Origin: a virus
Lineage: Duplodnaviria; Heunggongvirae; Uroviricota; Caudoviricetes
Direction: 5' to 3' (one strand)
IMG/VR virus record: IMGVR_UViG_2693429601_000003
DNA: 5,163 bases
Shown here: positions 1-4,293 of the stretch, one piece after another
How positions within the stretch are numbered: the stretch's first letter is position 1
Layout: every line of letters starts with the position of its first letter
The notes under the pieces: generated by a model
Seen by the model: only the letters and a program-made list of their open reading frames with translations
Told to the model about the DNA's origin: nothing
Databases searched by the model: none
Made by a program: the position numbers and the translations under genes

Positions 1-115
1 GTCGCTGGTCGCTGGTCGCTGGTCGCTGGTCGCTGGTCGCTGGTCGCTGGTCGCTGGTCGCTGGTCGCTGGTCGCTGGTCGCTGGTCGCTGGTCGCTGGT
101 CGCTGGTCGCTGGTC
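1..115. repeat. Perfect tandem heptanucleotide array (GTCGCTG)x16 plus a partial 17th unit (GTC); abuts the window start so true length is unknown
   Basis: Read directly: 16 identical 7-bp units at 1-112, then GTC and divergence (TGGCA). No stop codon in any of the six frames across the array. Confidence 0.95.
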
Positions 116-124
116 TGGCAGCAT
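1..124 (-). CDS. Partial ORF (start in window, 3' end beyond window start) encoding MLPD followed by heptapeptide repeats (QRPATSD)n; hypothetical repeat protein
   Basis: Minus-strand ATG at 124..122 preceded by AAGGA with 7-nt spacing; reads in frame straight into the heptamer array. A second ATG at 132..130 in another frame has a poorly spaced SD. Product unrecognised. Confidence 0.25.
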   Translation of the reverse strand, partial: MLPDQRPATSDQRPATSDQRPATSDQRPATSDQRPATSDQR

Positions 125-171
125 AAAATCATCCTTTTATGAAAATCAACGTTTTTTGAGCACTCGCACAC

Positions 172-215
172 AAAAAATTACCGCATTGGTTGCAACGACA
201 ACCTTCATTTTGCGG
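172..215 (-). terminator. Candidate intrinsic terminator at the 3' end of the hok transcript
   Basis: Minus strand: CCGCA...TGCGG stem (with nested GGTTG/CAACC hairpin) followed by TAATTTTTTG; lies about 85 nt downstream of the hok stop. Confidence 0.3.
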
Positions 216-298
216 AGCATATGACAAATAAAGTACGGGTGCGTTGAGGATGCCAGACACATCAGAGGTGGCGGGAGATTACTCCCCTGCCTGGTCTC

Positions 299-454
299 TT
301 ACTTCTCAGATTCGTAGTCTACGAAGACAGCGACCTCCGTCTGGCCGGTTCGGATTCGTACCTCGCAGAAGTCTTTCCTCGTTACCAGTGCTATCACTAC
401 GACGGTAATACAGATGACGATCAGGGCGATTAACATCGCCTTTTGCTGCTTCAT
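299..454 (-). CDS. hok: Hok/Gef-family type I toxin (small membrane-active host-killing peptide), 51 aa
   Basis: Hand translation gives MKQQKAMLIALIVICITVVVIALVTRKDFCEVRIRTGQTEVAVFVDYESEK, nearly colinear with HokD/RelF as I recall it. AAGGAG sits 5 nt upstream of the ATG; hydrophobic N-terminal helix followed by conserved C...C periplasmic tail. Missing from the ORF track, presumably because of its size. Confidence 0.85.
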   Translation of the reverse strand: MKQQKAMLIALIVICITVVVIALVTRKDFCEVRIRTGQTEVAVFVDYESEK

Positions 455-457
455 AGC

Positions 458-511
458 CTACTTCTCCTTGCCTTTCGGCACGTAAGAGGCTAACCTAAGT
501 TTGTAAGTCAT
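458..511 (-). CDS. Possible 17-codon leader ORF (Mok-like coupling peptide) ending 3 nt before the hok start
   Basis: ATG 511..509 with GAGG 8 nt upstream; encodes MTYKLRLASYVPKGKEK; its TAG stop (460..458) lies inside the hok Shine-Dalgarno. Speculative. Confidence 0.2.
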   Translation of the reverse strand: MTYKLRLASYVPKGKEK

Positions 512-575
512 AGATTTGGCCTCAGATTAATGTTAAGCGTCCTGCAAGACGCGTAATGTTAACTGGGGCTTTTCT

Positions 576-611
576 CTGTCTGCCTTACGGCTGCATGCCC
601 GAGGCAGACAG
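576..611. other. Stable stem-loop in the Q-hok intergenic region (9-bp perfect stem CTGTCTGCC/GGCAGACAG, 18-nt loop containing a GCATGC palindrome)
   Basis: Inverted repeat 576-584 / 603-611 read directly. No U-tract on either strand, so probably not an intrinsic terminator; could be an RNA element of the hok leader or part of the Q utilisation/late promoter region. Confidence 0.3.
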
Positions 612-653
612 CCTCAAGCACCCGCAGCTATTCTACAGTAAAAACTCGCGCTT

Positions 654-1079
654 TCAATTTCCCGCACGTCCGGCAAACTGACTGGCCTGTGATCCTGATG
701 GTTCACGCTCAACGTACCTGTCCATTTCCAGCTTTACTCCCTGCATGATCAACATCCCCTCAATAACACCTTCTGCTTTTTGCAGTACCCGCCCGGCCCA
801 GCAATCAGAGCGCCCATGCTTACGGCCCAGTGACATAAGCGTCATCCCGAACACATAATAATCATACAGAAAATCATGCAAATCGCTGTTGTTGACGTTC
901 AGTTGCGCCATGCAATTGCTGATAATCAGCGCATCGTCATCGGTACACTGAGGCCGTGATTTAACCTTTGACGGGATCAGCCCCTTAAATCCGGCGGCAA
1001 TGGGCGACCAGCTCACATCCTCATGATTATTGGCCACCCATGCGCCCCAGCGTTCAAGCACCTGCTGAATATCACGCAT
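654..1079 (-). CDS. Phage antitermination protein Q (QuuD-like family), 141 aa
   Basis: [22 protein letters not shown]... matches what I recall of the DLP12 QuuD-type Q antiterminator. I place the start at the internal ATG 1079 (SD-like AAGGGGAAAG upstream, 8-nt overlap with the ninH stop) rather than the track's 1163, which would overlap ninH by 92 nt. Confidence 0.85.
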
Positions 1080-1272
1080 CAGAGTCTTTCCCCTTATCCC
1101 ATCCACGGTGAACCATAAGGACACCGTTGACGACGGCGTGCCGTTTGCCTTCTTTATCGCCAATATATTTTCTGACCGTGTTGCGACTACAGTTCAGTAT
1201 TCTGGCTACCTCGGTCTGATTTTCATATGCCTCAACGAGCATGTCAGGAATGGTTTTTACTGTGAACGTCAT
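1072..1272 (-). CDS. ninH: NinH, small HTH DNA-binding protein of the lambdoid nin region
   Basis: [36 protein letters not shown]... closely resembles lambda NinH. GAGG SD; the start ATG overlaps the ninG stop (ATGA). Confidence 0.9.
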
Positions 1273-1874
1273 GCGGCCTCACTTCTGCTGTTTCGCAGGT
1301 CTTTGAGTTTCTGTTGGTACTCTGCCTTGATGGCCCTGCACTCTTCGACAGTCCAGCGATGGCGGTTATGGTTTGATTCGATTTCGTCTACTGCTTCCTG
1401 CCCGATGCGGTTAATCAGTTCGACGCGATACGGAACGAGATTTCCGCTTTTGTGCTGGTTGCACACCACGCATTGCTTGTGAATATTGCGTTCATCAAAT
1501 CGGAGTTGAGGCGCCGCAGCAGTTGTCCGGTAATGTCCGGCATCCCACTGAGCAGACGTGAGCGTTCCGCACGAGATACATGGTAAGTCGCGGTCTCTTT
1601 CTCTGATGAAGGCGTTTACGGCTTGTTGGGCTTGTTTAATCCAGTAACTGCGGGGCTTTAAGGCGAGTTTTCGAATCTTAATTTTATCTTTCTGTTTCTG
1701 CTCCTCTCGTCGTCGTTTCTTCTCTGCTGTTTTTTCCGCCTTTTCGCGTTCTTTATTTCGTCGTTCGAGCGCTAATTTAGTTCCGTGTTCCGGGCTGCAC
1801 CACCACTGATTTGAGAATGCCGGGTGAAACCATTCCTTACAGATTTTGCATTTCCTTCGCGCTGGTTTAGCCAT
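1269..1874 (-). CDS. ninG: NinG / Rap recombination-associated structure-specific endonuclease
   Basis: [30 protein letters not shown]... and the cysteine/histidine pattern match lambda NinG (Rap). GGGGAGG SD; the start overlaps the upstream stop (TAATG). Confidence 0.9.
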
Positions 1875-3806: not shown

Positions 3807-4293
3807 GCCGCCCTCCTGACGCCCTGCCCGATCGCCATCAATGCCGCTTTGGATACAGTAGTAAACATTCGTCGAGGACTGATGAACGGTCGCCAAATCA
3901 GCAGCATGGAGCCTTTGCTGTTTCCCTTCTTCTCCAGCCCTGTCGATGGTTCGATAAAATTAATCCGTCCATCAGTGATAATGCGAACTTCGTCGACACT
4001 CTCCAGAGCCTTGCTGAACCATCCGACTGACATATCCTCTGGCACAAGCATCACTACCGTCTGTCGCTGTTGTATGCACTGCTCAGCGGCTTTTTCCACC
4101 CACGGCCTGATATTGCTGTACGGTGGGTTATTCCAGATTGCACCGTGGCTTATCCACTCAGAATTTAGCGCGTCGTCGGCCTCAGTTAAGAATCCAGCCA
4201 GAATCCAAACTCAATATCCAGTGCATCAAAAAGCCAAAGCGGCGTTTGCCAGCAGTCCTTGTCGTGTGATGGCGTATTTGATTTGATAGTCAT
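3803..4293 (-). pseudogene. Dam-family (phage-type) DNA N6-adenine methyltransferase, disrupted by a frameshift
   Basis: ATG 4293..4291 (ATGA-coupled to the ninB stop, AAGGGAGAG SD) opens a 35-codon frame MTIKSNTPSHDKDCWQTPLWLFDALDIEFGFWLDS that stops at 4188..4186. The catalytic part (…AIWNNPPYSNIRPWVEKAAEQ…VVMLVPEDMSVGWF…, NPPY motif) continues in another frame from 4210 to the stop at 3805..3803. Confidence 0.6.

Follow-up and report, generated by a model that had tools for sequence, protein, structure and literature searches.

A hypervariable heptanucleotide tract as a probable frame switch in the 5′ coding region of a prophage Type IIB restriction-modification gene

The stretch analysed here, called the window throughout, comprises 5,163 nucleotides of a Caudoviricetes genome (IMG/VR record IMGVR_UViG_2693429601_000003) and begins inside a perfect heptanucleotide array. 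Positions 1–115 form a single repeat with a period of 7, 16.4 copies, 100% matches, 0% indels, and a score of 230 in Tandem Repeats Finder (TRF). The consensus is GTCGCTG on the plus strand, which is CAGCGAC on the minus strand, and direct reading agrees with TRF. A perfect 115-nt run of this period cannot be chance. An earlier note on the window had described this perfect array as well as a minus-strand ATG with a Shine–Dalgarno (SD) sequence reading MLPD(QRPATSD)n into it, and had proposed a candidate frame-switching locus. Array and ATG are both present, with the SD motif AAAGGA 7 nt before the ATG. A second ATG, the identity of the enzyme gene, the true size of the array, and further repeats in the gene of the specificity (S) subunit go beyond that note. 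The elements of the start region are as follows:

1..115, minus strand: (CAGCGAC)n tract, proximal 16.4 units (TRF), in the 5′ coding region of the gene for a putative Type IIB alpha subunit
122..124, minus strand: ATG#2, reading MLPD(QRPATSD)n to the window edge (direct reading, translation)
130..132, minus strand: ATG#1, 8 nt upstream of ATG#2 in a different frame, reading MILCCQTSD(QRPATSD)n (translation)
132..137, minus strand: Shine–Dalgarno sequence AAAGGA, with 7 nt from its end to ATG#2 (direct reading)

Since the SD sequence directly abuts ATG#1, initiation at this codon is probably weak, and in two loci (L039, L163) it is changed to ATA. The third frame lacks a start codon and is closed by a TGA shortly before the tract. 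As 7 = 1 mod 3, the tract yields the same peptide, (QRPATSD)n, whichever frame is read, and it is free of stop codons in all three. ATG#2 is in frame with the downstream enzyme gene at n = 2 mod 3 units for the junction '...CAGCAG TAAATC' and at n = 0 mod 3 for '...CG TAAATC'. The start region is retained in divergent alleles. The SD is kept in loci L040 and L173, and the E7-1N7 allele, with a DNA identity of only 81%, retains the SD, both ATGs at a distance of 8 nt, and 63 perfect units. The closest repeat-free homologue (locus L041; Logan SRR18824222, 700–800) has a similar leader, TTGATTTTAAAAAGGA...ATG, with a similar SD. Straight after its ATG follows AACAGCC x3, which may be a short heptanucleotide proto-tract at the same position. 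In a predicted RNA fold, GUGUCUGGCA from the 3′ region of the upstream toxin gene hok (window ~253–262, minus strand) pairs with UGCCAGAC (window 112–119, the first codons after ATG#2). The whole 191-nt segment has a z-score of −2.6, and read-through transcripts might have their start region masked by this pairing.

As the earlier note had stated, the array is cut off by the left edge of the window. In three related complete records, it continues to 89, 64, and 83 perfect units (TRF). Seven IMG/VR loci also end within the array, six of them showing only 24–153 bases of it, and a Salmonella contig starts exactly at its distal end. Because these contigs end or start at the array, long tracts appear to break short-read assemblies. 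The window was thus most likely truncated in the same way, the reads being shorter than the repeat, and the count of 16 does not represent the full array. With its start inside the array and its other end shortly before a prophage gene that is widely shared, the window looks like a complete short-read contig bounded by repeats.

The sequence past position 1 is provided by complete genomes and phage records. Here, one frame remains open from the array into a gene of 681–682 codons. Directly past the array lies the conserved N-terminus of a 682-residue enzyme, followed by the S gene, and the enzyme frame stays open backward through the array. Repeat-free homologues of 677–686 residues at 72–73% identity (Neisseria, Providencia, Methylophilaceae) start 3–20 residues before a conserved SVEPxIAxLANxWLKSY segment, which in the prophage alleles directly follows the tract. 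No ATG, GTG, or TTG is located between tract and segment in the prophage alleles. Because the repeat-free homologues start just before the N-terminus that abuts the tract, and no start codon lies in between, the tract reads as coding: the usable start codons of the enzyme all lie upstream of it, and unit number sets the reading frame. RefSeq, in contrast, begins the enzyme at an internal TTG (653-residue form). This codon lacks a good SD, and another allele has CTG in its place. The 32 codons from the tract to this TTG show a ratio of nonsynonymous to synonymous substitution rates (dN/dS) of 0.06–0.35.

Unit number varies widely. In 35 complete arrays, we counted 3–120 units with a median of 65, and the median rises to 76 in the 27 complete-genome or phage records. 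Loci without a single substitution over 300 bp upstream plus 2 kb of the gene carry 18, 30, 55, 57, 63, 75, 78, or 82 units. As loci with identical flanks differ in unit number, the tract mutates far faster than single bases. Two strains from one source, OkiPb01714 and OkiPb01696, differ with 23 versus 19 units. An identical 82-unit allele occurs in four strains (L003, L021, L023, L026), namely in phage PhiR12_3 from ECOR13, an O111:H8 strain, UCPROB-002, and Symbioflor strain G6/7. Perfect repetition is found in 28/35 arrays. Odd units occur among others in L006, L028, and L037, while the L034 array (CP027340) holds a poly-C run of ~65 nt. Several arrays contain 6-nt AGCGAC units resembling CC-to-C long-read consensus errors.

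All three frame states are represented. The enzyme is in the frame of ATG#2 in 9 of the 35 arrays, in the frame of ATG#1 in 15, and in the frame without a start in 11, with frame calls being unreliable for L034, L006, L028, and L037. For example, strain 48 (120 units) and G8 (98 units) fall in the ATG#2 frame and 2013C-3250 (63 units) in that of ATG#1, whereas 2013C-3033 and Z1323HEC0393 are out of frame. Proteins with the QRPATSD repeat fused to the enzyme are present in databases, with entries of 705, 751, and 766 residues. The locus thereby shows three hallmarks of a contingency locus: a unit that is not a multiple of three inside a coding sequence (CDS), length variation among close strains, and in- as well as out-of-frame alleles. 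The earlier proposals, that gain or loss of a unit changes the downstream frame and that the array is a candidate frame-switching locus, are supported by the coding position of the tract, its length polymorphism, and the frame states.

The enzyme is predicted to combine two activities. It matches the PADLOC model REase_MTase_IIG over its full length (E=3e-232) and a further model of 637 positions at 1e-44. The nuclease motif P59-D60...E78-x-K80 and the m6A methyltransferase motifs DFATGSAG and NPPY are invariant across the family, so that both motifs and profiles place a nuclease and a methyltransferase centre on one polypeptide. The S protein matches PADLOC Specificity_II ("Type II specificity subunit", E=2e-20), and Pfam Methylase_S aligns with it in two stretches, corresponding to two target-recognition domains. 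The RefSeq name HsdM, a Type I modification subunit, is rejected, as the NCBIfam hsdM equivalog model TIGR00497 gives 36 bits against a cutoff of 242.75. Moreover, no hsdR or other ATP-dependent motor gene is annotated in the fetched flanks, which span 1.5–5 kb on each side depending on the locus. A PDB sequence search with the enzyme gave no significant match to a solved structure. The only structural match near full length is the Type IIB enzyme BsaXI; it carries little weight, since the AlphaFold model has a mean predicted local distance difference test score (pLDDT) of 53, was built from a shallow alignment of 16 sequences, and is usable for the N-terminal domain only. We file the locus as a BcgI-like Type IIB restriction-modification (R-M) system, composed of a putative fused endonuclease-methyltransferase and an S subunit.

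Past the tract, the open reading frame (ORF) of the enzyme is intact in 31/31 loci with enough sequence, in whichever frame the tract stands. Among five tract-bearing alleles, one of them from Salmonella, dN/dS is 0.04–0.07 at dS values of 1.2–1.7. Purifying selection on the enzyme is strong, and the pattern fits a gene that would be expressed often enough to remain under selection. Annotations of a "broken S gene" had first suggested a decaying system, but those L001-type loci that were checked have an intact S ORF, including some called partial by RefSeq. The intact ORFs in every frame, the low dN/dS, and the retention of leader and tract in divergent alleles do not fit a decaying enzyme gene. 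In locus L001, RefSeq divides the intact 364-residue S ORF (1287–2399) into a short CDS and a "partial" pseudogene.

The S gene harbors repeats of its own in one allele group. An octanucleotide tract, (GCGGACTC)n, is located in mid-S with n = 4, 6, 9, 11, 16, 16, 18, and 26. S is full length if n = 0 mod 3; otherwise, a stop codon (TGA or TAA) follows 2–5 codons past the tract. An ATG directly after the octanucleotide tract could start the distal 173-residue S half separately. Further, a 24-bp in-frame repeat, ATATAGAAGAGCTGGAAGCGGCCC, is present in 1–4 copies between the S halves just upstream of the 8-bp tract. By analogy with known S subunits, both elements should alter target specificity. 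They lie outside the window:

L035 4134–4277, L036 4110–4197, L007 9632–9839, R-M genes forward: 8-bp/24-bp repeat regions of the S gene

Within the window, all genes are on the minus strand and correspond to the nin-Q region of a lambdoid prophage:

minus strand: DUF7301, Lar, NinB, Dam-like methylase, ORF6N/P22AR, Rha/KilAC antirepressor, NinG, NinH, Q, hok
654..1079, minus strand: antiterminator Q gene, a 426-bp CDS in RefSeq (Pfam Phage_antitermQ, E=9e-48)
630..657, minus strand: sigma-70-like promoter match TTGAAA-16-TAGAAT, 10/12 consensus matches, just past the Q stop codon
449..623, minus strand: sok family match (Rfam RF01794, 118 bits, gathering score 59)
299..454, minus strand: hok toxin gene, 51 residues (Pfam HOK_GEF, E=7e-22)
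172..215, minus strand: terminator-like hairpin (181–215) with U-run (172–180), 3′-terminal in the hok transcript; distance to ATG#2 downstream ~45 nt (RNA fold)

The sok coordinates were carried over from L001 5449–5623, as L001 5001–6300 aligns to window 1–1300 in one 1300-base piece with 99.9% identity. Given the Q gene upstream, tract and R-M genes sit in a late-operon position, the "moron" site downstream of Q in a lambdoid prophage. All annotated loci fetched, from genomes and phages alike, have hok as the gene directly before the tract. hok is annotated as frameshifted in L004, L032, L034, and L037–L039, with the R-M genes still intact. The sigma-70-like match at 657–630 is the only one near the tract. 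As a candidate pR′ or hok promoter, it could feed transcription toward the tract. The hairpin presumably acts as a terminator; the scan puts the inner stem of 181–215 on the opposite strand. Window 1–1300 matches 29 complete E. coli genomes and the sequenced phage PhiR12_3 over at least 80% of its length. In most fetched loci, the S gene is followed on its 3′ side by a methylase remnant and an Ile-Arg-Arg tRNA cluster, in some with stx2b or stx1c next. Compared to the intact copy in L001, the phage Dam-like methylase of the window (PF05869, 3803–4320, minus strand) carries a 37-bp deletion with its junction at 4190/4191. It is split into ORFs of 44 and 98 residues and is probably a pseudogene.

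The same unit was found at one other modification gene. In Pectobacterium carotovorum DSM 30168 (L051 6520–7662), CAGCGAC x17 stands in frame behind the SD-ATG of a gene for an EcoRI-family N6-adenine methylase (Pfam E=1e-130). The tract leads into the conserved N-terminus with no other start, and RefSeq begins the gene at an internal non-canonical codon. This architecture was seen in one genome. A 7-residue periodic N-terminus was present in 0/120 of the best homologues of this methylase, making it a single instance so far. We found no relatives of the Pectobacterium methylase in coliphages, and the methylase remnant of the Shiga toxin (Stx) prophages is unrelated to it. Arrays of at least four CAGCGAC units occur at more than 120 loci in many phyla (L043–L162, GTDB species representatives), none of them with the Type IIB enzyme. 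The ORFs scanned beside these arrays match several unrelated families, and a general specificity of the unit for R-M genes is rejected for this reason. In many of these cases, a long open frame has its upstream end no more than a few codons from the array; the GTDB arrays are unrelated to the prophage R-M gene. A Planctomycetota metagenome-assembled genome (JALHRW01) has CAGCGAC arrays on more than 15 contigs, and arrays are also found in Streptomyces and Gemmatimonadota. Among the newly fetched array loci on viral contigs, six encode the Type IIB gene, one ends inside the array behind the same leader, and seven have unrelated flanks.

We consider it probable that the repeat is a slipped-strand frame switch, i.e. 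a contingency tract, within the 5′ part of the coding sequence for the large subunit in a prophage Type IIB R-M system. This interpretation is drawn from the coding position of the tract, its hypervariability, the occurrence of all frames, the conservation of the enzyme, and the second frame-shifting tract in S. Transcription would probably come from upstream, via a Q-dependent late promoter or read-through from hok. Translation would begin at the SD-ATG at 124..122, perhaps weakly also at the ATG 8 nt upstream. The ribosome would then pass the stop-free (CAGCGAC)n in any frame, making (QRPATSD)n, and would either continue into the nuclease-methyltransferase or encounter a stop 0–7 codons beyond it. 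Each 7-bp unit gained or lost would shift the gene between these states. With nuclease and methyltransferase on one polypeptide, both activities would consequently be switched together. In the allele group with S repeats, the 8-bp tract would additionally fuse or split the S halves and the 24-bp repeat would change their spacer, so that the locus could vary expression and probably target specificity. The coding position of the tract, its frame logic, the extreme length polymorphism, and the purifying selection on the enzyme are shown by the data; we infer that switching is reversible within a clone, that the enzyme is active with its long N-terminal tail, that a promoter serves the gene, and that the switch brings a biological benefit.

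Several observations weigh against a selected switch. The tail would add up to ~280 extra N-terminal residues next to the nuclease domain. A terminator-like hairpin (181–215) lies just upstream of the tract, and the promoter scan found no sigma-70 promoter between this hairpin and the ATG. The tracts, with a median of ~76 units in complete genomes, are far longer than those of classical contingency loci, which could mean runaway expansion or another role. The recurring 82-unit allele indicates either that the tract is not boundlessly unstable or that the phage has spread recently. Imperfect units in 7/35 arrays, one with a poly-C run, are possible long-read consensus errors. The locus is also scarce, being present in 30/5,426 complete E. 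coli genomes and always chromosomal. Finally, the 9/15/11 distribution of frame states does not differ from uniform (chi-square p=0.45), which a neutral repeat would fit as well.

The alternative we take most seriously, although we judge it unlikely, is a neutral hypermutable variable-number tandem repeat (VNTR) that shifts the frame without being a selected switch, in an R-M module being lost. The uniform frame states, the scarcity of the locus, and the unusual tract length speak in its favor, as do an IS1 within the R-M module of one locus and the frameshifted hok in several. Under neutrality, however, the enzyme ORF would not be expected to be intact in every locus, including the 11 out-of-frame ones, nor would dN/dS be so low at near-saturated dS while tract, SD, and ATG are kept across the same alleles. 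In the L001-type loci examined for this, S appears as a pseudogene only through its annotation. S also has a frame-shifting tract of its own, independent of the first, and the design is seen again on the Pectobacterium methylase.

Repeat number could instead tune transcription, mRNA stability, or coupling, if the tract were an untranslated or separately translated leader and the enzyme started at the internal TTG. PGAP calls the 653-residue form in most genomes, naming it HsdM, and the 7-bp repeats in the promoter region of Haemophilus influenzae hmw genes do tune expression. We regard this possibility as very unlikely for the locus described here: the annotated TTG is neither preceded by a good SD nor kept in all alleles, the segment upstream of it is conserved in distant homologues and under purifying selection, and the proper SD-ATG lies directly before the tract, with no other start codon between tract and segment.

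Less probable still is an array acting at the DNA level, modulating RecBCD or serving as a recombination hotspot. On the plus strand, direct reading of window 1–115 reveals overlapping octamers, GCTGGTCG, each one base from Chi, GCTGGTGG. By our estimate, a random heptamer repeat would come this close, at one mismatch or less, to a Chi-containing repeat in only ~2% of cases. No evidence for activity of the GCTGGTCG variant was found; one paper lists it only among 24 single-mismatch variants screened. A Chi-like function also leaves the SD-ATG, the frame relation, and the separate 8-bp tract in S unexplained.

We give practically no credence to the plus-strand ORF (VAGRWSL)n as a real gene: most RefSeq records covering the locus show it as a "YXWGXW repeat-containing" or "hypothetical" protein (e.g. 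L001 4483–5142, plus strand), but its length merely tracks the array, its product name changes between records, the tract is stop-free in the frames read on either strand so that such an ORF is automatic, and the opposite strand explains the locus fully. The array can hardly be an assembly or synthetic artefact either, even though the window ends inside it and some long-read assemblies contain consensus errors, as 27 complete-genome or phage records and many independent contigs contain it, with lengths that differ, leaving the truncation of the window itself as the probable assembly break.

In E. coli and Salmonella, the textbook mechanisms of phase variation are DNA inversion and Dam methylation rather than simple repeats. 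If the frame switch is real, slippage-controlled R-M in their prophages, sometimes located between Q and the Shiga-toxin genes, would extend this repertoire by one mechanism and bring in a source of cell-to-cell difference in phage resistance and DNA methylation, and the restriction and modification state of the lysogen and the released phage could be bet-hedged. On a practical level, the tract breaks short-read assemblies, probably including this window, and causes consistent RefSeq mis-annotation in the form of a wrong-strand repeat protein, a truncated "HsdM", and false S pseudogenes. It is also a potentially very discriminating typing marker. For multiple-locus VNTR analysis of enterohemorrhagic E. 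coli (EH111-x and others), whose loci might include this tract, the one paper found gives no repeat sequences. We put forward a wider model only tentatively, and it may well prove wrong: temperate enterobacterial phages, including Shiga-toxin phages, might carry a deliberately hypermutable R-M cassette with a 7-bp ON/OFF element, an 8-bp S element, and a 24-bp spacer element, by which lysogens and progeny would continually diversify restriction, methylation, and specificity. The leader-ATG-(CAGCGAC)n would then be a portable 5′ switch, recruited independently to unrelated modification genes, namely the Type IIB enzyme of E. coli and Salmonella prophages and the EcoRI-family methylase of Pectobacterium. 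Under this model, E. coli, which is not known for such behavior, would have repeat-based contingency or phasevarion behavior.

In its subunit organization, the prophage system resembles BcgI (PMC3592470) and BsaXI (PDB 8w2p), in which the large subunit likewise combines an N6-adenine methyltransferase with a nuclease at its N-terminus, recognition is left to a separate Type I S-like subunit, and a motor subunit is lacking. In BcgI, the A subunit holds both activities and the B subunit is S-like (PMC3592470). The sizes are alike, with 682 and ~361 residues here and 71.6 and 39.2 kDa in BcgI (PMC3592470). The prophage enzyme differs in having no significant sequence match to any solved structure, and it is placed in Type IIB on the basis of its sequence. 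To our knowledge, neither BcgI nor BsaXI carries a repeat tract.

The proposed switch is closest to the phase-variable Type III mod genes (phasevarions) and Type I hsdM/hsdS genes. There, too, a repeat that is not a multiple of three lies inside a DNA-modification ORF, unit number shifts the frame, and in- and out-of-frame alleles are found among strains (PMC5909438, PMC7383803). Atack et al. found such repeats in 17.4% of Type III and ~10% of Type I systems (PMC5909438, PMC7383803), and the main text of their Type I survey does not mention Escherichia. The present locus is distinguished by a Type IIB fused enzyme with an S-like subunit, a 7-bp unit, E. coli and Salmonella as hosts, and a lambdoid, often Stx-converting, prophage as carrier. 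Its tracts of 50–120 units are, as far as we know, far beyond the tracts of Type I and III phase-variable systems.

Heptanucleotides of variable copy number are also found at hmw1A and hmw2A of H. influenzae, where they lie in the promoter/leader region and grade transcription. The prophage tract differs in being translated and setting the frame. In the lytic coliphages T2 and T4, slippage-prone repeats in phage genes have likewise been proposed to serve bet-hedging (bioRxiv 10.1101/2025.10.21.683753). The loci concerned consist of simple sequence repeats within genes of lytic phages, T2 agt among them, and the text of that preprint does not mention temperate or lambdoid phages or heptanucleotide repeats (bioRxiv 10.1101/2025.10.21.683753). 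In the literature searched, whose coverage was incomplete and did not extend to REBASE, no description of the locus was found under 7-bp or 8-bp repeats, QRPATSD, or phase-variable R-M in E. coli or prophages. Within the same limits, this agrees with the remark of the earlier note that heptanucleotide repeats are undescribed in lambdoid prophages.

For the S gene, two precedents apply. A central spacer repeat in the S subunit changes the specificity of EcoR124I/EcoR124II and resembles the 24-bp repeat between the recognition halves here. In NgoAV, hsdS is truncated by a poly-G tract, comparable to the 8-bp S-splitting tract. In contrast to both, the prophage operon unites the two S elements with an ON/OFF tract on the catalytic subunit, and its S-splitting unit is an octanucleotide. 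Repeat-controlled R-M genes are thus already well known. What is new is the Type IIB class, the E. coli/Salmonella host, the lambdoid/Stx prophage carrier, the 7- and 8-bp units, the tract lengths, and the presence of three variable elements per operon.

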